A DNA stretch of 64,000 nt from Escherichia coli (GCF_001677475.2 NZ_CP015229.1), one strand, 5' to 3'. Positions 2,511 to 60,988 are shown, counted from the stretch's first letter. Notes: a model not told the origin generated them from the letters alone. A program made the numbers and translations.

Positions 2511-3338
2511 ATGACATTGCAACAACAAATAATAAAGGCGCTGGGCGCAAAACCGCAGATTAATGCTGAAGAGGAAATTCGTCGTAGTGTCGATTTTCTG
2601 AAAAGCTACCTGCAAACTTATCCGTTCATTAAATCACTGGTGCTCGGGATCAGCGGCGGTCAGGACTCCACGCTTGCCGGAAAGCTGTGCCAGATGGCGA
2701 TTAATGAGCTGCGCCAGGAAACTGGCAACGAATCGCTGCAATTTATTGCCGTACGCCTGCCCTATGGTGTTCAGGCCGACGAACAAGATTGCCAGGATGC
2801 CATTGCCTTTATTCAACCGGATCGCGTATTAACCGTTAATATCAAGGGCGCGGTATTGGCCAGCGAACAGGCGCTGCGCGAAGCGGGTATTGAATTAAGT
2901 GATTTTGTCCGTGGCAATGAAAAAGCGCGTGAGCGGATGAAAGCACAATATAGCATTGCGGGTATGACCAGCGGTGTCGTGGTGGGCACCGATCATGCAG
3001 CAGAAGCCATTACCGGATTCTTCACTAAATATGGTGACGGCGGTACGGACATTAATCCACTGTATCGTCTCAACAAACGTCAGGGTAAACAGTTACTGGC
3101 AGCATTAGGTTGCCCGGAACACCTTTATAAGAAAGCCCCAACTGCCGATCTGGAAGATGATCGCCCTTCTCTGCCAGATGAAGTGGCACTCGGCGTGACC
3201 TATGACAATATCGACGACTATCTGGAAGGGAAAAACCTACCTGAACAGGTCGCCAGAACAATAGAGAACTGGTATCTGAAAACCGAACATAAACGCCGTC
3301 CGCCAATTACCGTTTTCGATGATTTCTGGAAAAAGTAA
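2511..3338 (+). CDS. nadE: NH3-dependent NAD+ synthetase
   Basis: ORF track 275 aa [26 protein letters not shown]...; SGGQDS ATP-PPase motif; recognised as NadE. Confidence 0.95.
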
Positions 3339-6007: not shown

Positions 6008-12071
<6,064 letters not shown>

Positions 12072-50972: not shown

Positions 50973-51144
50973 CCTTTTCCCTCCTTCGGTGAATGCGCTG
51001 AAAACAGTTTATTCCAGCCGTTTCAGGGTACGCCTGATAATTTGCATTTTAAATACCATTTATTGGTTACTTTTTAGCACCATATCAGAGAAGAATCAGG
51101 GAGGATTACAGATGGGAAGCCCGCGACAACGCGGGCTGAAAGCA

Positions 51145-51852
<708 letters not shown>

Positions 51853-51909
51853 TTAGAAAGGAGAAAATCAGGTTTTAACCTGATATCAACCCGATAATTG
51901 AATCATTAA

Positions 51910-52833
51910 TCAGGCATGCTCCAGTGAAAAATTCGGGTAGTGCTCGGCAAAATACTGGCGTAAAAATTCTACCGTTATCCGCACTTTCGCTGACGTCGCC
52001 AGCCTTGAAACATAAACGGCCCAGACGTTCGCTGGCTGGTAATATTCCGGTAGCACTTGTACTAAATGACCACTGGCAATGTTTTCGCTAACATCCCACC
52101 AGGAGCGCAGAGCAATCCCCTGTCCATCGAGACACCACTGATGGACAATTTCTCCATGATTAGACGACAGTGGGCCGGTGACTTTAATCGCATGGTGGCC
52201 TTCTTTATTGCGTAATTGCCAGACACCAAAAGGATGATCGCGCTCTTTAATGACCAGGCACGGCAATGCGGAAAGATCGGTTAAATGTTTCGGCGCGCCA
52301 TGTTGCGCAATAAATTCCGGCGACGCGCAGAGAATGCGGTAATTGGTCGCCAGTTTGCGGGCGATTAAATTAGGGGCGATGTCATCGCCAATGCGAATAT
52401 CGAGATCGACACCTTCATTGACCAAATCGACCAACCGGTCTTCCACATCAAAACGTAATTCCAGTTGCGGATACGCCTTCGCCAGCGCTGATAACGCCGG
52501 AGCCACCACCTGTCGTCCAAAACCAAAGCTGCTGATAATACGCAGCATCCCCTGTGGCACCTGACGCACGTCAGAAAGTTCGTCCATCATCTGACCGACA
52601 TCCTGCAAAATCCGCTGCGCCCATTCATAAATCCGCTCTCCTTCTTCGGTAATGGTGACGCGGCGGGTGGTGCGGTGTAACAACACCACGTTTAGCGTTT
52701 GCTCCAGCAAGGCGATGCGCTTGCTGACGAACGCCGGTGAAACGCCCAGTTCTTCCGCCACGGCGGCAAAACCAGCCCGGCGAGCCACCAGCATAAAGAC
52801 GCGCAAATCGTTCAGCAGCGGTAAATTATTCAT
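51910..52833 (-). CDS. dmlR: LysR-family regulator of D-malate degradation
   Basis: ORF track 314 aa trimmed to ATG at 52831-52833 (MNNLPLLNDLRVFMLVARR...). Confidence 0.8.
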   Translation of the reverse strand: MNNLPLLNDLRVFMLVARRAGFAAVAEELGVSPAFVSKRIALLEQTLNVVLLHRTTRRVTITEEGERIYEWAQRILQDVGQMMDELSDVRQVPQGMLRIISSFGFGRQVVAPALSALAKAYPQLELRFDVEDRLVDLVNEGVDLDIRIGDDIAPNLIARKLATNYRILCASPEFIAQHGAPKHLTDLSALPCLVIKERDHPFGVWQLRNKEGHHAIKVTGPLSSNHGEIVHQWCLDGQGIALRSWWDVSENIASGHLVQVLPEYYQPANVWAVYVSRLATSAKVRITVEFLRQYFAEHYPNFSLEHA

Positions 52834-52935
52834 GATTCGTGTTTTATGTTTCACCAGTTACGGGGATTAATTCCTTTTCAGTCAATTATAGGATGGTGAT
52901 GTTGTCAATTTTGATGGTCAGGAAGTGAGAACCCA

Positions 52936-54021
52936 ATGATTAAAACGATGCGTATTGCTGCGATCCCGGGAGACGGGATTGGCAAAGAAGTCCTTCCTGA
53001 AGGGATTCGCGTGTTACAGGCTGCCGCTGAGCGCTGGGGCTTCGCCTTGAGTTTTGAGCAAATGGAGTGGGCGAGCTGCGAGTATTACAGCCATCACGGT
53101 AAAATGATGCCGGACGACTGGCATGAGCAACTTAGCCGTTTCGACGCCATCTATTTTGGTGCCGTCGGCTGGCCGGACACCGTTCCGGACCATATTTCGT
53201 TGTGGGGTTCGCTGCTGAAATTTCGTCGTGAATTCGACCAGTACGTCAACCTGCGCCCGGTTCGTCTCTTTCCTGGCGTTCCCTGCCCGCTGGCGGGAAA
53301 ACAGCCTGGCGACATCGATTTTTACGTGGTCAGGGAAAACACCGAAGGCGAATATTCCTCGCTCGGCGGTAGAGTGAATGAAGGTACAGAGCATGAAGTC
53401 GTCATTCAGGAATCGGTATTTACGCGTCGTGGTGTCGATCGCATTTTGCGTTATGCCTTCGAACTTGCGCAAAGCCGCCCACGTAAGACGCTTACTTCTG
53501 CCACTAAATCAAACGGTTTAGCCATCAGCATGCCGTACTGGGATGAGCGAGTGGAAGCAATGGCCGAGAATTACCCGGAGATCCGCTGGGACAAGCAGCA
53601 TATTGATATTCTCTGCGCGCGTTTTGTGATGCAGCCGGAACGCTTCGATGTGGTGGTGGCGTCCAATTTGTTTGGCGATATCCTTTCCGATCTTGGCCCG
53701 GCCTGCACCGGCACCATTGGCATTGCCCCATCCGCCAACCTGAATCCGGAACGCACTTTCCCGTCGCTCTTCGAGCCTGTCCACGGTTCCGCGCCGGATA
53801 TCTACGGGAAAAATATTGCTAACCCTATCGCCACAATTTGGGCCGGTGCAATGATGCTCGATTTTCTCGGCAATGGCGATGAGCGTTTCCAGCAAGCGCA
53901 TAACGGTATTCTGGCAGCGATTGAAGAAGTGATTGCTCACGGGCCGAAAACACCGGATATGAAAGGCAGTGCCACCACGCCACAGGTTGCCGACGCGATT
54001 TGCAAAATTATTTTGCGTTAA
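52936..54021 (+). CDS. dmlA: D-malate / 3-isopropylmalate dehydrogenase (decarboxylating)
   Basis: ORF track 361 aa; divergent from dmlR. Confidence 0.85.
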   Translation: MIKTMRIAAIPGDGIGKEVLPEGIRVLQAAAERWGFALSFEQMEWASCEYYSHHGKMMPDDWHEQLSRFDAIYFGAVGWPDTVPDHISLWGSLLKFRREFDQYVNLRPVRLFPGVPCPLAGKQPGDIDFYVVRENTEGEYSSLGGRVNEGTEHEVVIQESVFTRRGVDRILRYAFELAQSRPRKTLTSATKSNGLAISMPYWDERVEAMAENYPEIRWDKQHIDILCARFVMQPERFDVVVASNLFGDILSDLGPACTGTIGIAPSANLNPERTFPSLFEPVHGSAPDIYGKNIANPIATIWAGAMMLDFLGNGDERFQQAHNGILAAIEEVIAHGPKTPDMKGSATTPQVADAICKIILR

Positions 54022-54041
54022 GGTCAAACCAGTTTATTTGA

Positions 54042-54068
54042 ACCGCGTCACTGACGCGGTTTTTTTAT
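54042..54068 (+). terminator. intrinsic terminator downstream of dmlA
   Basis: accgcgtca-ctgacgcggt hairpin followed by ttttttt. Confidence 0.85.
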
Positions 54069-54271
54069 TCGTTCTTTGCAGTAAATAACCTGCGTCATTT
54101 CACCTTTTATTGTTTCCGTTTCGTGTTTTATGGCTTTCCGTATTCTTAATTGTTTAATTTATGTAACATGCAAATAATCAATTTGTTAATCACGACATAC
54201 AACTCATTACCCTGCAAATAATTACAACTGGCAAAAGCCAGAGACGGGCTTTTATGCCCAGGAGATGACTC

Positions 54272-55882
54272 ATGATGAGCAATGTTAAGAAAAAAGATGT
54301 GCCGCTGATAAGCATCAGCCTGGTGGCCATTCTTTTCATCGCAGCTGCATTAAGCCTTTTCCCACAACAATCGGCCGACGCGGCCAACGCAATATACACT
54401 TTTGTTACGCGTACGTTAGGTTCCGCCGTACAGGTATTGGTTTTGCTGGCAATGGGACTGGTGATTTATTTAGCCACCAGTAAATACGGCAATATTCGTC
54501 TTGGCGAAGGAAAACCGGAATACAGCACGCTCTCCTGGCTGTTTATGTTTATTTGTGCCGGTTTAGGTTCTTCTACGCTTTATTGGGGGGTTGCTGAATG
54601 GGCCTATTATTATCAAACGCCTGGATTAAATATCGCACCGCGTTCACAACAGGCACTCGAATTTAGCGTTCCCTACTCCTTCTTCCACTGGGGCATCAGC
54701 GCCTGGGCAACTTATACGCTGGCCTCATTAATCATGGCTTATCACTTTCATGTGCGGAAAAATAAAGGGCTGAGCCTTTCCGGCATTATTGCTGCTATTA
54801 CCGGCGTTCGCCCGCAAGGCCCGTGGGGGAAACTGGTCGATTTGATGTTCCTGATCGCCACTGTCGGCGCACTGACCATTTCCCTTGTTGTCACCGCAGC
54901 AACCTTTACCCGTGGGCTTTCCGCGCTGACCGGTTTACCCGATAACTTTACCGTACAGGCATTTGTGATCCTGCTTTCCGGCGGCATTTTTTGCCTAAGC
55001 TCGTGGATTGGTATCAACAACGGTTTGCAACGTCTAAGCAAAATGGTTGGCTGGGGCGCGTTCCTGCTGCCATTACTGGTGCTGATTGTCGGTCCAACCG
55101 AATTTATTACCAACAGCATCATCAATGCCATCGGCCTGACCACGCAAAACTTCCTGCAAATGAGCTTATTCACCGATCCGCTTGGCGATGGTTCATTTAC
55201 CCGCAACTGGACCGTTTTCTACTGGCTGTGGTGGATCTCATACACGCCTGGCGTAGCAATGTTTGTCACCCGCGTTTCCCGCGGTCGTAAGATTAAAGAA
55301 GTTATCTGGGGACTGATCCTCGGCAGCACCGTCGGTTGCTGGTTCTTCTTCGGCGTAATGGAAAGCTATGCCATTCACCAGTTTATCAATGGTGTAATCA
55401 ACGTCCCACAGGTGCTGGAAACACTGGGCGGCGAGACAGCTGTGCAGCAAGTTCTGATGTCGTTGCCAGCCGGTAAATTGTTCCTCGCCGCATACCTGGG
55501 CGTGATGATTATTTTCCTTGCCTCGCATATGGATGCGGTGGCCTACACCATGGCGGCAACCAGTACGCGTAATCTCCAGGAAGGTGACGATCCTGACCGT
55601 GGGCTGCGTCTTTTCTGGTGCGTGGTAATTACCCTGATCCCGCTTTCAATTCTTTTCACTGGCGCGTCGCTGGAAACGATGAAAACCACCGTCGTACTCA
55701 CAGCCCTTCCGTTCCTCGTCATTTTACTGGTGAAAGTCGGCGGATTTATTCGCTGGCTGAAACAGGATTACGCCGACATTCCGGCTCATCAAGTTGAACA
55801 TTATCTCCCGCAGACACCGGTTGAAGTCCTGGAAAAAACGCCAGTGCTCCCTGCGGGAACCGTATTCAAAGGCGACAACTGA
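54272..55882 (+). CDS. yeaV: BCCT-family transporter (betaine/carnitine/choline type)
   Basis: ORF track 536 aa; start may lie further downstream. Confidence 0.8.
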
Positions 55883-55913
55883 GCGCCATCATCCTAACGA
55901 TAAAGGTATCCCT

Positions 55914-57038
55914 ATGAGCAATCTGAGCCCTGACTTTGTACTACCCGAAAATTTTTGCGCTAACCCGCAAGAGGCGTGGACCATTCCTGCCCGTTTTTAT
56001 ACCGATCAGAACGCCTTTGAACACGAAAAAGAGAGCGTCTTCGCCAAAAGCTGGATTTGCGTCGCTCATAGCAGCGAACTGGCGAATGCCAATGATTATG
56101 TGACGCGTGAGATCATTGGCGAAAGCATCGTGCTGGTACGTGGTCGTGATAAGGTTTTGCGCGCGTTCTATAACGTTTGCCCGCACCGTGGTCATCAGTT
56201 ATTGAGCGGCGAAGGGAAAGCGAAAAATGTGATTACCTGCCCGTATCACGCCTGGGCATTCAAACTCGATGGTAACCTGGCCCATGCGCGTAACTGCGAA
56301 AACGTCGCCAATTTCGATAGCGACAAAGCGCAACTGGTTCCAGTACGTCTGGAAGAATATGCCGGATTCGTCTTCATCAACATGGACCCCAACGCCACCA
56401 GCGTAGAAGATCAGTTACCCGGTCTGGGCGCGAAAGTGCTGGAAGCCTGCCCGGAAGTCCACGATCTGAAACTGGCGGCCCGCTTTACCACCCGCACGCC
56501 TGCCAACTGGAAGAACATTGTCGATAACTATCTCGAGTGCTATCACTGTGGTCCGGCGCATCCAGGTTTCTCCGACTCCGTACAGGTTGATCGTTACTGG
56601 CACACCATGCACGGTAACTGGACGCTGCAATACGGTTTCGCCAAACCGTCAGAACAGTCTTTCAAATTCGAAGAGGGCACGGATGCGGCATTCCACGGTT
56701 TCTGGCTGTGGCCGTGCACGATGCTGAACGTCACCCCAATCAAAGGGATGATGACGGTCATTTATGAATTCCCGGTGGATTCTGAAACTACCCTGCAAAA
56801 CTACGATATTTACTTCACCAATGAAGAGTTAACCGACGAGCAAAAATCGCTGATTGAGTGGTATCGCGATGTGTTCCGTCCGGAAGATTTACGTCTGGTT
56901 GAAAGCGTACAGAAAGGGCTGAAATCGCGTGGCTATCGTGGTCAGGGGCGCATCATGGCCGACAGTAGCGGTAGCGGAATTTCCGAACATGGTATCGCCC
57001 ACTTCCATAATCTGCTGGCGCAGGTGTTTAAGGACTAA
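55914..57038 (+). CDS. yeaW: Rieske [2Fe-2S] oxygenase subunit (carnitine monooxygenase CntA-like)
   Basis: Internal ATG at 55914 (MSNLSPDFVLPENF...); Rieske motif CPHRG...CPYHAW. Confidence 0.85.
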   Translation: MSNLSPDFVLPENFCANPQEAWTIPARFYTDQNAFEHEKESVFAKSWICVAHSSELANANDYVTREIIGESIVLVRGRDKVLRAFYNVCPHRGHQLLSGEGKAKNVITCPYHAWAFKLDGNLAHARNCENVANFDSDKAQLVPVRLEEYAGFVFINMDPNATSVEDQLPGLGAKVLEACPEVHDLKLAARFTTRTPANWKNIVDNYLECYHCGPAHPGFSDSVQVDRYWHTMHGNWTLQYGFAKPSEQSFKFEEGTDAAFHGFWLWPCTMLNVTPIKGMMTVIYEFPVDSETTLQNYDIYFTNEELTDEQKSLIEWYRDVFRPEDLRLVESVQKGLKSRGYRGQGRIMADSSGSGISEHGIAHFHNLLAQVFKD

Positions 57039-57093
57039 TGACATCGGCGGCGGTATTTTCCGCCGCTGGGCTGATTTTTGATGGAGTACAGCA

Positions 57094-58059
57094 ATGTCAG
57101 ACTATCAAATGTTTGAAGTACAGGTGAGCCAGGTTGAACCGCTTACAGAACAGGTGAAACGCTTCACGCTGGTGGCAACCGATAGCAAACCATTACCTGC
57201 GTTTACTGGAGGAAGTCACGTCATTGTGCAGATGAGCGATGGTGATAACCAGTACAGCAATGCGTATTCACTACTGAGTTCGCCGCATGACACCTCTTGT
57301 TATCAGATTGCCGTTCGGCTGGAGGAAAACTCGCGCGGCGGTTCCCGCTTTTTGCATCAGCAGGTAAAAGTGGGCGATCGGTTAACGATTTCAACGCCTA
57401 ATAACCTGTTTGCGCTAATTCCCTCGGCCAGAAAGCATCTGTTTATCGCGGGCGGCATTGGTATCACCCCTTTCCTGTCGCACATGGCAGAGTTGCAACA
57501 CAGCGACGTCGACTGGCAGCTACATTACTGCACGCGAAATCCAGAAAGTTGCGCATTTCGTGATGAGCTAGTCCAACATCCGCAGACGGATAAAATCCAT
57601 TTTCATCACTCATCGACCGGAACGCGTCTTGAATTAGCGCGATTATTGGCGGATATCGAACCTGGCACACATGTTTATACCTGTGGCCCCGAGGCGCTAA
57701 ATGAAGCGGTAAGAAGTGAAGCTGCGCGTCTGGACATCGCCGCCGATACGATGCACTTTGAACAATTTGCGATTGAAGACAAAACCGGCGATGCATTTAC
57801 CCTGGTGCTTGCCCGTTCCGGTAAAGAGTTTGTGGTGCCGGAAGAGATGACTATTTTGCAGGTTATTGAAAATAATAAAGCAGCGAAAGTGGAATGTTTA
57901 TGTCGTGAAGGGGTATGCGGAACCTGCGAAACGGCAATACTGGAAGGTGAAGCTGACCATCGGGATCAGTATTTTAGCGATGAAGAGCGTGCCAGCCAGC
58001 AAAGTATGTTGATCTGTTGTTCGCGTGCGAAGGGTAAACGCCTGGTGTTGGATTTGTAG
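57094..58059 (+). CDS. yeaX: oxygenase reductase subunit (FNR-like plus plant-type 2Fe-2S ferredoxin domain, CntB-like)
   Basis: ORF track 321 aa; C-terminal CxxxxCxxC ferredoxin motif. Confidence 0.85.
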   Translation: MSDYQMFEVQVSQVEPLTEQVKRFTLVATDSKPLPAFTGGSHVIVQMSDGDNQYSNAYSLLSSPHDTSCYQIAVRLEENSRGGSRFLHQQVKVGDRLTISTPNNLFALIPSARKHLFIAGGIGITPFLSHMAELQHSDVDWQLHYCTRNPESCAFRDELVQHPQTDKIHFHHSSTGTRLELARLLADIEPGTHVYTCGPEALNEAVRSEAARLDIAADTMHFEQFAIEDKTGDAFTLVLARSGKEFVVPEEMTILQVIENNKAAKVECLCREGVCGTCETAILEGEADHRDQYFSDEERASQQSMLICCSRAKGKRLVLDL

Positions 58060-58063
58060 TTTG

Positions 58064-58105
58064 CCGAAGCCGGACTGAGCGCGCCCAGTCCGGCTTCGGA
58101 AGATT
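58064..58105 (+). terminator. strong hairpin between convergent yeaX and rnd
   Basis: 14-bp stem ccgaagccggactg/cagtccggcttcgg followed by aagatttta. Confidence 0.7.
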
Positions 58106-59233
58106 TTACTGCGGATATTCCTGCAATAAATTGTGTAATGCTTCCGCCATCAGCTCACCACGCCAGCCGGAAATCAGCTCCGGCAAATTGTTCTGCGGTT
58201 TCAGTTTCCAGTGCCAGTTCAGCAGTTGGTTGATTTGCCGACGCGATGCCAGCAATTCGGCGCTGATCTTGTGCGTTTCGCTCACGTCAGTAATCAGCGA
58301 CTTAATCGCTTTAAACGCTTTACGATAACCCGGCATGTCCATCAGGTTAAGCATCGGCTGCGGTAAGGCCTCTTCCGGCAATGTCTGCGCTTTTTCCACC
58401 AGCGCCAGCAGCGTTTTACCGTGAAAGCGGATTTCGCTACCGGATAAGCCCAGGCTGTCCAGTTCGCCTAAACTTCCCGGCATATAACGCGCTACCGACC
58501 ACAAATGCTCTTCACGCACGACAAAGTTCACCGCCAGATCGCGCTCCCGCGCCTTGCGCAGTCGCCAGTCGGCTAACAGTTGCAGACAGGCCAGTTGGCG
58601 TGTGCGTAACTGCCAGGCATTGGTGATATCACGCCAGGCATCTTCCGGTGCAACGACTTCCTGACGACGCATTTGCATCAGGCGGCATTCATCCAGCGCC
58701 GCAGGTAGCCAGCCGGAGGCCTCCGTTTCTACCATAAGCTTTGCGGTGATCGGTAACAGATACCAGACATCCGCCGCTGCGTATTCACACTGACGTTCGG
58801 TCAGCGGTCTGGCCAGCCAGTCGGTGCGCGATTCACTCTTGTCCAGCGTAACGCCGGAATACTCTTCCACCATGGAAGCGAAACCCCATGACATCGGGCG
58901 TCCGCAGAAGGCAGCAAGGATTTGCGTGTCAATCAGGGGTTGTGGTAATTCGCCAAAGACATTGAGGAACACTTCCAGATCTTCACTGCCTGCATGGAGA
59001 AATTTTGTGATGGACGGATCGCGCAGGATCGCTTTCAGCGGTGACCAGTCGGTGATCCCGAGTGGATCGATTAGCGCCAGATGCTCGCCATCGAAAAGTT
59101 GAATCAACCCCAGCTGCGGGTAATAAGTGCGCGTACGAACAAATTCAGTATCCAGGGCTATCGCCGGAAAGGCACGGACGGCTTCACACAAAGAAGCCAG
59201 CGCATCGTCCGTGGTAATCATTTGGTAATTCAA
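58106..59233 (-). CDS. rnd: ribonuclease D
   Basis: ORF track 375 aa MNYQMITTDDALASL... Confidence 0.9.
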   Translation of the reverse strand: MNYQMITTDDALASLCEAVRAFPAIALDTEFVRTRTYYPQLGLIQLFDGEHLALIDPLGITDWSPLKAILRDPSITKFLHAGSEDLEVFLNVFGELPQPLIDTQILAAFCGRPMSWGFASMVEEYSGVTLDKSESRTDWLARPLTERQCEYAAADVWYLLPITAKLMVETEASGWLPAALDECRLMQMRRQEVVAPEDAWRDITNAWQLRTRQLACLQLLADWRLRKARERDLAVNFVVREEHLWSVARYMPGSLGELDSLGLSGSEIRFHGKTLLALVEKAQTLPEEALPQPMLNLMDMPGYRKAFKAIKSLITDVSETHKISAELLASRRQINQLLNWHWKLKPQNNLPELISGWRGELMAEALHNLLQEYPQ

Positions 59234-59253
59234 ATTGTATTCTCTTTAGTGGG

Positions 59254-59286
59254 CGTCAAAAAAAACGCCGGATTAACCGGCGTCTG
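59254..59286 (-). terminator. intrinsic terminator downstream of fadD (the sRNA SroD is reported from the rnd-fadD interval in K-12)
   Basis: On the minus strand acgccgg-ttaa-ccggcgt followed by 8 T; the SroD link is from memory and low-confidence. Confidence 0.8.
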
Positions 59287-59302
59287 ACGACTGACTTAAC
59301 GC

Positions 59303-60988
59303 TCAGGCTTTATTGTCCACTTTGCCGCGCGCTTCGTCACGTAATTCTCGTCGCAAAATTTTTCCGACGTTAGATTTCGGTAACTCATCACGAAACTCCA
59401 CCAGCTTCGGTACTTTGTAGCCCGTGAGCTGACGGCGGCAAAAGGTCACCAGTGACTCTTCGGTAAGCGATGGATCTTTTTTCACTACGAAGATTTTCAC
59501 CGCTTCACCACTGGAGCCGGAAGGTACGCCAACAGCCGCGACTTCCTGTACGCCAGGATGCTGCATGACGACATCTTCAATCTCGTTGGGATAGACGTTA
59601 AAACCGGAAACCAGAATCATGTCTTTTTTACGATCGACAATGCGCAGGAATCCTTCTTCATCCATCACCGCGATGTCGCCGGTGTGTAACCAGCCATTTT
59701 TGATGATTTCATCGGTAGCATCCGGACGCTGCCAGTAACCCAGCATCACCTGCGGTCCTTTGACACAAAGCTCACCCGGTTGACCCGGTGGTACTTCATT
59801 ATCATCATCATCCACAAGTTTTGCTTCCGTCGACGGCACCGGCAAACCGATGCTACCACTATGATAATCAATATCATACGGGTTAACGCTCACCAGCGGC
59901 GCACACTCGGTCAGGCCATAACCTTCCAGCAGATACTGTCCTGTCAGTTTCACCCAACGTTCTGCCACCACTTGCTGAACAGGCATCCCTCCGCCTGCGG
60001 AAAGATGCAGACTGGAGAAATCCAGCTGCTGGAACTCTTTATTGTTCAGCAACGCATTGAACAAGGTGTTTACGCCGGTGATAGCGGTAAACGGATATTT
60101 CGCTAACTCTTTTACCAACCCTGGAATATCGCGCGGGTTAGTGATAAGCAGGTTCTGCCCACCCAGTTCGATAAACAGCAGGCAGTTAATGGTCAGGGCA
60201 AAAATGTGATAGAGCGGCAGTGCCGTTACTACCAGTTCTTTACCTGGATGCAGCAACGGCCCATAGGTGGCGTTGACCTGTTCCAGGTTCGCCAGCATAT
60301 TGCGGTGAGTCAGCATCGCGCCTTTCGCCACACCTGTGGTGCCGCCGGTGTATTGCAGGAAGGCTAAATCTTCCGGCACCAGTTCGGGTTTGACGTACTG
60401 CATCCGGTAGCCGTTATGCAGTGCGCTACGAAATGAAATGGCATCTGGCAGATGGTATTTCGGCACCAGACGCTTGATGTATTTAACAACAAAATTGACT
60501 ACCGTGCCTTTTGCCGTAGATAGCTGATCGCCCATACGGGTCAGAATTACGTGCTGAACGGCGGTTTTATCAACCACTTTTTCCAGAGTGTGGGCAAAGT
60601 TAGACACGATAACAATCGCCGATGCGCCGCTATCGTTAAGCTGATGCTCAAGTTCACGCGGGGTATACAACGGGTTAACGTTTACGACAATCATCCCGGC
60701 ACGCAAAATACCAAACAGCGCCACCGGATATTGCAATAAATTAGGCATCATCAACGCAACGCGATCGCCTTTCTTCAGTCCCAACCCTTGTTGCAAATAA
60801 GCGGCAAACGCGCGACTGCGTTCTTCCAGTTTGCGGAAGGTCATCACCTCCCCCATATTCACAAACGCGGGTTGATCGGCGTAGCGCGCGACCGACTGCT
60901 CAAACATATCTACCAGAGATTGATAACGGTCAGGGTTGATCTCCGTCGGAACGTCCGCGGGATAACGGTTAAGCCAAACCTTCTTCAA
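59303..60988 (-). CDS. fadD: long-chain-fatty-acid--CoA ligase; TTG start
   Basis: ORF track 583 aa trimmed to TTG at 60986-60988 ([25 protein letters not shown]...), 561 aa. Confidence 0.9.

Follow-up and report, generated by a model that had tools for sequence, protein, structure and literature searches.

A probable Escherichia coli version of an ancient aerobic carnitine-catabolic cluster at the dmlR-yeaX locus

The genes dmlR, dmlA, yeaV, yeaW and yeaX of Escherichia coli are most probably, at an estimated probability of about 0.8, the form that one ancient cluster for aerobic carnitine catabolism takes in this species, with the cluster split into two transcription units in enterobacteria. 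A reading of the sequence alone had described the locus as two adjacent modules; the terminator and the gap between them are real, but synteny and the literature (PMC11353897) identify a single ancestral cluster. That the genes belong to one ancient, widely conserved cluster, and are not two sets of chance neighbours, had already been noted (PMC11353897), in agreement with the synteny described below; the identity of the locus, the function of YeaW/YeaX and the orthology of the cluster were likewise already known.

Results

Gene layout and synteny

The listing of open reading frames in the window, the 64-kb stretch of DNA that was analysed, contains five intact ORFs at this locus. On the minus strand, dmlR (yeaT; 51910-52833) encodes a LysR-type regulator of 307 aa. 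On the plus strand, it is followed by dmlA (yeaU; 52936-54021), whose 361-aa product carries the RefSeq name D-malate/tartrate/3-isopropylmalate dehydrogenase (decarboxylating), yeaV (54272-55882), encoding a full-length BCCT-family transporter of 536 aa, yeaW (cntA; 55914-57038), encoding the 374-aa Rieske oxygenase subunit of carnitine monooxygenase, and yeaX (cntB; 57094-58059), encoding the 321-aa FMN/NADH and plant-type [2Fe-2S] reductase subunit. A gap of 250 bp (54022-54271) separates dmlA from yeaV, and spacers of 31 bp (55883-55913) and 55 bp (57039-57093) precede yeaW and yeaX, respectively. This order, the strands, both spacers and the gap had been given in the sequence-only reading and agree with the ORF listing and the RefSeq annotation. 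RefSeq also annotates the identical gene set, lengths and spacing, with dmlR at matching coordinates, in ETEC1738, the complete genome nearest to this sequence (98.9% identity across 7 kb). For dmlR one correction applies: its longest ORF reaches a GTG at 52854, but the annotated 307-aa product begins with the ATG at 52833.

Downstream of the cluster, a hairpin with a 14-bp stem (58064-58099) lies between the convergent genes yeaX and rnd. Whichever strand is folded, its dG is about -31 kcal/mol (z -6.3 and -6.6); it is still present in B2 strains that lack the cluster and is likely the end of the yeaVWX transcript. This hairpin, shared with rnd, and another one in the yeaW-yeaX spacer (57044-57069) are additions to the earlier description.

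The order dmlR/dmlA-yeaV-yeaW-(msadh)-yeaX is found again across Enterobacterales, Pseudomonas and Acinetobacter. At 55 of 78 loci, dmlR (on the opposite strand), dmlA, yeaV and yeaW are found in identical order, and a DmlA homologue is encoded at most 8 kb from cntA at 64 of 80; in Paraburkholderia the cluster is rearranged, with dmlA still near cntAB. Purifying selection acts on each of the five, with dN/dS values against E. albertii of 0.013-0.077, compared to 0.010 and 0.018 for the flanking leuE and rnd. The five-gene cluster of E. coli was described in 2024 as the Acinetobacter baumannii orthologues minus hyd and msadh (PMC11353897).

DmlR, DmlA and their control region

DmlA matches TIGR02089 with 562 bits (cutoff 470) as well as Pfam Iso_dh, while DmlR combines the Pfam domains HTH_1 and LysR_substrate and has TtdR as its nearest NCBIfam model, at a score under the model cutoff. 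These matches bear out the earlier assignment of dmlR as a LysR regulator gene divergent from dmlA. D-malate is said, with reference to Lukas et al. 2010, to be the known inducer of this regulator. Based on sequence and published biochemistry, dmlA is activated by DmlR, the LysR-type protein encoded divergently from it, and DmlA is a decarboxylating D-malate dehydrogenase that yields pyruvate.

The 102-bp divergent control region (52834-52935) contains the box TTCGTGTTTTATG (52836-52848), a -35-like ATTAAT (52866-52871), a dyad ATTAA-N11-TCAAT (52866-52886), a -10-like TAGGAT (52889-52894) and a second GTCAATT (52904-52910). Both its length (100-104 bp) and its sequence blocks are kept from Escherichia to Xenorhabdus and Serratia, including the T-N11-A dyad typical of LysR-type regulators, which takes the perfect form ATTGA-N11-TCAAT in the latter two genera. 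The intergenic sequence shows no differences from the K-12 sequence in the oligonucleotides of PMC6452873. Laboratory evolution had yielded the up-mutations T->G and C->T in this region (PMC6452873 supplement); these changes map to 52868 and 52883, inside the promoter elements, and support the placement of the dmlA promoter here.

A terminator and a candidate promoter between dmlA and yeaV

The strong terminator proposed to follow dmlA is indeed present on the plus strand (54040-54069), consisting of a 10-bp stem (54040-54062) with 6 G-C pairs, a 3-nt loop and a run of seven T residues. Its dG of -15.6 kcal/mol (z = -4.5) was equalled in 0 of 200 shuffles, and it is invariant throughout Escherichia and Citrobacter. 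Further downstream on the same strand lies a candidate yeaV promoter module (54120-54178), in which a second copy of TTCGTGTTTTATG (54120-54132) is followed by a -35 element TTGTTT (54150-54155) and, after a 17-nt spacer, a -10 element AATAAT (54173-54178). Within the 64-kb window, this 13-mer occurs only at 52836 and 54120 (expected 0.11). The spacing of box, -35 and -10 is constant in 15 Enterobacterales loci, and the distance to the yeaV ATG ranges from 92 to 234 nt. The earlier expectation of a yeaV promoter within 54022-54271 thus gains a conserved candidate, although a standard sigma-70 consensus scan of this interval called no site; the -35/-10 pair, which matches only 8 of 12 consensus positions, is weaker but phylogenetically conserved. 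We consider the module likely to be the yeaV promoter. As the yeaV and dmlA promoters have the same 13-mer box and the same box/-35/-10 geometry, their arrangement suggests that control by DmlR is common to both. However, the box upstream of dmlA adjoins the dmlR start codon, so that its conservation there could instead reflect dmlR translation signals.

The yeaW-yeaX spacer and the loss of msadh

Just upstream of the yeaX SD, the plus strand carries a terminator-like hairpin with a U-run (57044-57079; hairpin 57044-57069). The hairpin has 8 G-C pairs among its 10 bp, and the spacer folds with a dG of -26.2 kcal/mol (z -4.5). Both Escherichia and Citrobacter keep the structure, 7 of 12 pairs showing compensatory changes, and it is orthologous to the hairpin in the msadh-yeaX spacer of other species. 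For the co-transcription of yeaVWX previously proposed, transcription of yeaX must pass this conserved structure. A GabD-like aldehyde dehydrogenase is encoded between cntA and cntB at 60 of 78 loci, whereas our synteny survey found msadh absent from the cluster in all four Escherichia species; in msadh-less Citrobacter, a deletion scar is visible. The gene was thus lost in Escherichia, where the 55-bp spacer between yeaW and yeaX marks its former site.

YeaW/YeaX is a carnitine monooxygenase

YeaW aligns over residues 4-371 with the structure of A. baumannii CntA (PDB 6Y8J) at 658 bits, widely separated from the aromatic-ring dioxygenases, of which the next-best family, phthalate dioxygenase, reaches 118 bits. 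Among NCBIfam HMMs none attains its cutoff for YeaW, the best being GbcA (154, cutoff 670); Pfam detects Rieske (83.5 bits) and Ring_hydroxyl_A (82.4 bits), and both the Rieske motif C89-P-H...C-P-Y-H and H211-x4-H are found. YeaX, a single-polypeptide reductase encoded 55 bp downstream of yeaW, as expected for a CntA/CntB pair, contains the Pfam domains Fer2, NAD_binding_1 and FAD_binding_6 and the motifs C270-x4-C-x2-C...C and GIGITP. Purified E. coli YeaW/YeaX is a proven, highly active carnitine monooxygenase, converting L-carnitine to trimethylamine and malic semialdehyde (PMC9508527). The mere resemblance to a trimethylamine-yielding carnitine oxygenase noted from the sequence was thus an understatement: sequence and published biochemistry identify YeaW/YeaX as the two-component Rieske carnitine monooxygenase (a group V Rieske oxygenase, EC 1.14.13.239), which also cleaves gamma-butyrobetaine.

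YeaV and a 225-bp deletion among E. coli strains

YeaV matches NF007412 with 1031 bits (cutoff 647) over residues 1-536 of 536, N-terminal helices included, and further matches TIGR00842 (548 bits) and Pfam BCCT (406 bits). On the basis of sequence and published biochemistry, it is a BCCT transporter; for its A. baumannii orthologue, transport of carnitine and choline has been described (PMC11353897), and YeaV itself may transport carnitine or gamma-butyrobetaine, for which metabolomics with the truncated K-12 ORF gives indirect evidence (PMC10971958).

This truncation stems from the loss of a 225-bp segment (54175-54399, plus strand), defined by alignment to a K-12-like genome, which is present here but missing from K-12-type strains and from B/BL21. 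With it go part of the -10 element, the SD together with the 5'UTR, and yeaV's first 128 nt; the PGAP annotation of genomes with the deletion lists yeaV as a pseudogene 'missing N-terminus'. Of 5426 genomes, 2930 contain the segment, and the cluster is intact, as here, in only about 54% of the complete E. coli genomes; the promoter/yeaV 5' deletion accounts for about 26%, and the cluster is absent from about 20%, with dmlR through yeaX lost together in about 1060 genomes. All five genes are lost together in B2 strains, and in the E. whittamii representative yeaV has an internal lesion. E. coli BL21, B and K12 did not grow on carnitine, and cntA expression was not found in public data (Piskol et al. 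2024, PMC11353897). All three of these strains carry the 225-bp lesion.

Discussion

We propose that the ancestral cluster operates in E. coli as two units. The dmlA unit would end at its intrinsic terminator, and the yeaVWX unit would start from a promoter that is weak and of the activator type (-35 at 54150-54155, -10 at 54173-54178), with DmlR probably driving both promoters. The hairpin and U-run before yeaX may attenuate read-through or stabilise the transcript, and could thereby set the ratio of oxygenase to reductase. In the published pathway, carnitine is converted to malic semialdehyde, then to D-malate and finally to pyruvate (PMC11353897); without msadh, any flux from malic semialdehyde to D-malate would depend on an aldehyde dehydrogenase of general function, for instance GabD. 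From sequence we thus infer where yeaV transcription starts, that DmlR binds the box found at both promoters, and what the hairpin before yeaX does.

One can ask whether the locus is not rather composed of two independent modules that happen to lie side by side, dmlR-dmlA for D-malate/tartrate and an unrelated yeaVWX set for quaternary amines, with separate regulation and roles. The strong terminator and the 250-bp gap that part dmlA from yeaV would fit such an arrangement, as would the carnitine-independent roles of DmlA in growth on D-malate and tartrate and as a LeuB substitute (PMC11353897; PMC6452873) and the fact that msadh, the enzyme linking both halves, is missing in E. coli. However, the gene order is common to three orders of Proteobacteria, dmlA stays near cntAB even in the rearranged clusters of Paraburkholderia, the Acinetobacter genes form one CarR-controlled operon, and the YeaWX product becomes, via msadh, the substrate of DmlA (PMC11353897). 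Box and geometry are common to both promoters, and B2 strains have lost all five genes at once, leaving independence of the modules improbable. We regard it as less probable still that yeaVWX in E. coli is a decaying, functionless remnant, silent and heading to loss after the deletion of msadh. While msadh is gone from all Escherichia, about 26% of complete genomes have the 225-bp deletion, about 20% lack the cluster, the E. whittamii representative has its yeaV lesion, and laboratory strains show neither carnitine growth nor detectable expression (PMC11353897), this negative physiology comes solely from strains with the 225-bp deletion. No ORF of the five is broken here or in about 54% of genomes, their dN/dS, at 0.013-0.077 since the split of E. 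coli and E. albertii, which postdates msadh loss, is on a par with that of the housekeeping neighbours, conservation extends to the yeaX hairpin and the promoter module, and purified YeaW/YeaX is highly active (PMC9508527).

Within the preferred reading of a single, split cluster, a further and tentative idea, which we consider rather unlikely as it stands, is that yeaVWX has a native promoter which depends on DmlR and is paralogous to that of dmlA, and which only natural isolates still have intact, since the deletion in K-12 and B/BL21 cuts the -10 element, the 5'UTR and the first YeaV transmembrane helix. If this were true, the reports that cntA is silent and that E. coli does not use carnitine would reflect an artefact of laboratory strains, and about half of E. 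coli strains would express a D-malate/carnitine-linked aerobic pathway forming trimethylamine under one regulator.

The A. baumannii cluster, carR/mdh-bcct-hyd-cntA-msadh-cntB (Zhu 2014; Breisch 2019, 2022; Piskol 2024, PMC11353897), has five orthologues here, for an LTTR, a D-malate dehydrogenase, a BCCT transporter, a Rieske oxygenase and its reductase, and they agree with it in order and orientation. Their published identities are 45, 72, 56, 72 and 52% (PMC11353897), and our tblastn comparison gave 45-50, 70-72, 55-57, 72-74 and 48-51%. As in A. baumannii, the LTTR gene is divergent from mdh, bcct, cntA and cntB, whereas msadh is missing at this locus between cntA and cntB, which are only 55 bp apart, and so is hyd between bcct and cntA, where the gap is 31 bp compared to about 1.1 kb in Acinetobacter. 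The mdh-bcct gap of Acinetobacter measures 59-78 bp, in contrast to the intrinsic terminator and 250-bp promoter-candidate gap of E. coli, and the cluster genes there form one operon controlled by CarR (PMC11353897). A complete carnitine degradation cluster of the A. baumannii type would support growth on carnitine as sole carbon source, on which the E. coli strains tried do not grow. A. baumannii CarR senses carnitine, whereas E. coli DmlR is reportedly known, again from Lukas et al. 2010, as a sensor of D-malate.

Enterobacterial clusters that contain msadh, for example those of Citrobacter sp. R56 and C. youngae, have the same order, dmlR/dmlA-terminator-yeaV-yeaW...yeaX-rnd, and the dmlA terminator, box/-35/-10 module and pre-yeaX hairpin in common with E. 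coli; between yeaW and yeaX they still encode a GabD-like aldehyde dehydrogenase of 482 aa, which Escherichia and some Citrobacter have lost. In E. coli K-12, the D-malate system DmlR/DmlA (Lukas et al. 2010, J Bacteriol 192:2503; Vorobieva 2014) has the same divergent LTTR-target layout and does not differ at this locus, although published work treats dmlRA apart from yeaVWX. The characterised E. coli YeaW/YeaX (Koeth 2014; Piskol 2022, PMC9508527) corresponds to the same locus, with the same RefSeq names, lengths and cofactor motifs and with allelic differences only (best E. coli DNA identity 98.9% over 7 kb); it came, however, from K-12/B-type strains in which the neighbouring yeaV is truncated, whereas the yeaV described here is full length.

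Gene content and conservation of the cluster

All five genes at 51910-58059 are intact open reading frames. dmlR (51910-52833, minus strand) encodes HTH_1 and LysR_substrate domains; dmlA (52936-54021, plus strand) matches the tartrate/D-malate dehydrogenase equivalog TIGR02089 with 562 bits (cutoff 470), and yeaV (54272-55882, plus) matches the YeaV-type BCCT model NF007412 with 1031 bits over residues 1-536 of 536. Downstream, yeaW (55914-57038, plus) has its Rieske and mononuclear-iron motifs, and yeaX (57094-58059, plus) carries flavin/NAD and plant-type ferredoxin domains. The gene order and orientation proposed in the sequence-only reading agree with our ORF list and with the RefSeq annotation of the best match, strain ETEC1738, in which the genes, their lengths and their spacing are identical, with leuE as the neighbour on one side and rnd and fadD on the other. 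The ORF coordinates likewise reproduce the spacers of 31 bp (yeaV-yeaW) and 55 bp (yeaW-yeaX) and the 250-bp gap after dmlA; the sole correction concerns dmlR, whose longest ORF reaches GTG 52854, the annotated 307-aa protein starting at ATG 52833. YeaW scores 658 bits against the sequence of the A. baumannii CntA crystal structure (6Y8J) and 118 bits against the next family. That YeaWX 'resembles' a carnitine oxygenase was therefore right and an understatement, because the purified E. coli YeaW/YeaX enzyme has been demonstrated to be a carnitine monooxygenase (PMC9508527). The locus is textbook-annotated and biochemically characterised, and this reading of its genes was already known, with gene content and enzymology settled. 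At 59259-59344 on the minus strand, the interval from rnd to fadD contains a further known feature, the small RNA sroD, with a full-length match of 115 bits to Rfam RF00370.

In Acinetobacter baumannii, CntAB converts carnitine to trimethylamine and malic semialdehyde, which is turned into D-malate by MSA-DH, a dehydrogenase of malic semialdehyde, and then into pyruvate by D-malate dehydrogenase (Piskol et al. 2024, PMC11353897). The description of dmlR-dmlA and yeaVWX as adjacent modules needs refining, as they form one cluster. Among 80 loci collected with YeaW as query, one genome per species, 78 contained both oxygenase subunits, and the order dmlR(-) dmlA yeaV yeaW was found directly upstream in 55 of these, in Escherichia, Citrobacter, Yersinia, Xenorhabdus, Serratia, Pseudomonas, Acinetobacter and Vitreoscilla. 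A DmlA homologue lay within 8 kb of cntA (yeaW) in 64 of the 80 loci, six of the 16 exceptions ending at contig ends, and in Paraburkholderia, where the cluster is rearranged, dmlA is still found a few kb downstream. On this synteny, the dmlRA-yeaVWX adjacency is both old and functional.

A gene of ~1.45 kb separates cntA from cntB (yeaX) in 60 of the 78 loci. The product in Citrobacter sp. R56 is a GabD-like aldehyde dehydrogenase of 482 aa, which scores 702 bits with TIGR01780; identity to the Acinetobacter gene is ~64%. This MSA-DH gene (msadh) is missing from all four Escherichia species and from some Citrobacter, Yersinia, Xenorhabdus, Serratia and Pseudomonas. In msadh-less Citrobacter, its final ~10 nt (GGGCTGTAA) remain directly after the yeaW stop codon as a clean deletion scar, and the 55-bp yeaW-yeaX spacer of E. 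coli is the site of msadh. One could regard a cluster that has lost msadh as a decaying, dead remnant. However, when the window was compared with E. albertii, which likewise lacks msadh, dN/dS was 0.016 for dmlR, 0.032 for dmlA, 0.039 for yeaV, 0.013 for yeaW and 0.077 for yeaX, the neighbours leuE and rnd giving 0.010 and 0.018. The low values in all five genes mean that purifying selection has been maintained, which argues against a dead remnant in those lineages that keep the cluster.

Terminator, hairpins and candidate promoters

The strong terminator that had been claimed after dmlA is confirmed: a 10-bp stem at 54040-54062 on the plus strand, followed by a T-run, folds with a dG of -15.6 kcal/mol (z -4.5; none of 200 shuffles folds as well) and is unchanged in Escherichia and Citrobacter. 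An Rfam match to anti-hemB on this terminator (21.6 bits against a gathering score of 49.5) was dismissed as a sub-threshold chance match, and a search of 51000-59500 at permissive E-values returned no RNA family inside the cluster.

In the alignment of the dmlA-yeaV gap (54022-54271) from Escherichia and Citrobacter, the terminator is followed by several conserved blocks. The 13-mer TTCGTGTTTTATG has just two copies in the 64-kb window, 52836-52848 and 54120-54132, both on the plus strand and one per intergenic region of the cluster; its chance expectation is 0.11, and two matches appeared in none of 100 shuffles. A local alignment of the dmlR-dmlA region (52834-52935) with the gap was bettered by 4 of 1000 shuffles. 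In 15 Enterobacterales loci, TTGTTT follows the core GTGTTTTAT at +27/28, and exactly 17 nt further on stands a -10-like hexamer, AATAAT, TATATT or GATACT, with Serratia (TTGTGG and CACACT) as a weak exception. The module lies 92 to 234 nt from the yeaV ATG, and its distance from dmlA is variable too. A rigid module in variable flanks looks like a promoter with an upstream activator site. Two short hairpins in the yeaV 5'UTR (54227-54241 and 54246-54259), with short stems and no clear compensatory changes in the alignment, support no claim.

The dmlR-dmlA region mirrors this geometry, with the box at 52839, ATTAAT (TTGAAT in Xenorhabdus) at +27 and TAGGAT at +50. Overlapping the -35-like hexamer is a T-N11-A dyad, ATTAA-N11-TCAAT (52866-52886); Xenorhabdus and Serratia have it in the perfect form ATTGA-N11-TCAAT. 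Selection of K-12 for growth on meso-tartrate yielded two up-mutations in this region (PMC6452873), which map to window positions 52868 (T->G) and 52883 (C->T). The former converts ATTAAT to ATGAAT, gaining the G of TTG, and the latter makes the dyad a perfect ATTAA-N11-TTAAT; both support the proposed placement of the dmlA promoter. By analogy with the dmlR-dmlA region, we propose that yeaV has its promoter at 54150-54178, with transcription beginning near 54185; it may be driven by the same LysR-type activator as the dmlA promoter. A sigma-70 consensus scan of 51000-59500 called no site in the dmlA-yeaV gap, so that this proposal rests on conservation instead. Two other candidates were rejected: a CRP site (TGTGA-N6-TCACA) for the shared box, as its GTG...CAC spacing of 10-11 nt differs between the copies, and a minus-strand TTGACA/TATAAT pair as the dmlR promoter, as its spacer is merely 12 nt. 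Our literature searches returned nothing on co-expression of dmlA with yeaVWX, DmlR binding data or transcript data. Induction by D-malate through DmlR was reportedly described by Lukas et al. in 2010.

Just upstream of the yeaX SD lies a terminator-like hairpin on the plus strand (57044-57069; 10 bp, 8 of them G-C), with a U-run at 57075-57079. It matches the hairpin in the msadh-yeaX spacer of relatives with msadh and is conserved in Escherichia and Citrobacter, with or without that gene. In 15 sequences from Escherichia and Citrobacter the stem varies in sequence and keeps its pairing, 7 of 12 pairs showing compensatory changes, and neither the TTTT run nor the GGAG varies; selection is therefore acting on a terminator-like element directly in front of the yeaX ribosome-binding site. 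We infer that it attenuates transcription or stabilises the transcript. The same sigma-70 scan revealed no separate yeaX promoter, so read-through is still needed for yeaX; co-transcription of yeaVWX, as first suggested, stands to this extent, qualified by the conserved hairpin. A perfect 14-bp stem at 58064-58099, between the convergent yeaX and rnd genes, folds with ~-31 kcal/mol on each strand, is retained in strains without the cluster and is probably a shared bidirectional transcript end.

Allelic variation within E. coli

When the 7-kb region 51500-58500 was compared with 5426 complete E. coli genomes, 5425 gave a match and 4366 covered at least 80% of it. Identity was 98.9% for ETEC1738, the best value obtained over these 7 kb, 94% for Escherichia sp. 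E1V33 and 87% for E. albertii, which places the sequence in E. coli sensu stricto. A 225-bp segment, 54175-54399, comprising part of the candidate -10 element, the 5'UTR and SD of yeaV and the initial 128 nt of that gene (codons 1-43), is deleted in K-12-type genomes and in BL21(DE3), where PGAP annotates yeaV as a pseudogene with a missing N-terminus. The classic 481-aa K-12 'YeaV' would be an ORF truncated at its N-terminus, with a TTG start corresponding to codon 56 here. Only 2930 of the 5426 genomes carry the segment, so that the cluster is intact in ~54%, truncated in promoter and yeaV in ~26% and lost in ~20%. The truncated class was estimated from the coverage of the 7-kb query and the segment counts, a direct BLAST count of the K-12 deletion junction being uninformative, as half-matches are joined in intact genomes.

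The ~1060 genomes of the third class, UPEC clone D i14 among them, lack everything from dmlR to yeaX apart from a multi-deletion scar (window ~52078-58040; 2911-3326 in the comparison locus L003). It consists of the 3'-terminal 168 nt of dmlR, an internal piece of dmlA 156 nt long and half of the dmlA terminator, the first, joined to the final bases of yeaX, with one junction at the 11-nt repeat ATTTTGCGTTA (53443 and 54010). A rarer, larger deletion class is represented by E. coli strain 1444 (locus L004, 3178-3875), in which IS1 adjoins rnd and the entire yeaH-to-rnd stretch, including the whole dml/yea cluster, is gone. In the representative genome of Escherichia whittamii (locus L006), the BLAST alignment has an ~80-nt break within yeaV (~6996-7003, window ~54828-54908), and the YeaV match is limited to the C-terminal 323 residues; this may be an independent lesion. 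In BL21(DE3) (locus L086, 3966-5674), the IS4-like IS421 interrupts yeaR just upstream of leuE, unrelated to the cluster.

The first 2.7 kb of 51500-58500 are 99.0% identical to K-12-type genomes, the remainder 97.6%, and none of the 5426 complete genomes exceeds 98.9% over the whole region. This pattern suggests that the region is a recombinant mosaic or comes from a lineage that is under-sampled. Public draft genomes and metagenomes do contain the exact YeaX allele, in the same context.

Discussion

As a marker gene, cntA/yeaW is used to gauge the capacity of the gut microbiota to convert dietary carnitine to trimethylamine, a metabolite with a link to cardiovascular disease, and the majority of gut cntA reads derive from E. 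coli (PMC5433236), which gives the locus medical relevance. BL21, B and K12, for which a lack of growth on carnitine has been reported, belong to the deleted type, which was verified in BL21(DE3) and in a K-12-like strain, and a metabolomics study of YeaV (PMC10971958) presumably used K-12 constructs. The standard laboratory strains behind the notion that E. coli neither expresses nor uses this pathway thus all carry the truncated form, and the sharp strain differences at this locus need to be considered when marker-gene counts or negative physiology are interpreted. Compared with the papers that we searched, the promoter architecture that the two intergenic regions share, the hairpin conserved ahead of yeaX, the scar left by msadh and the crippled allele in common laboratory strains go modestly beyond what has been described for this carnitine monooxygenase locus.
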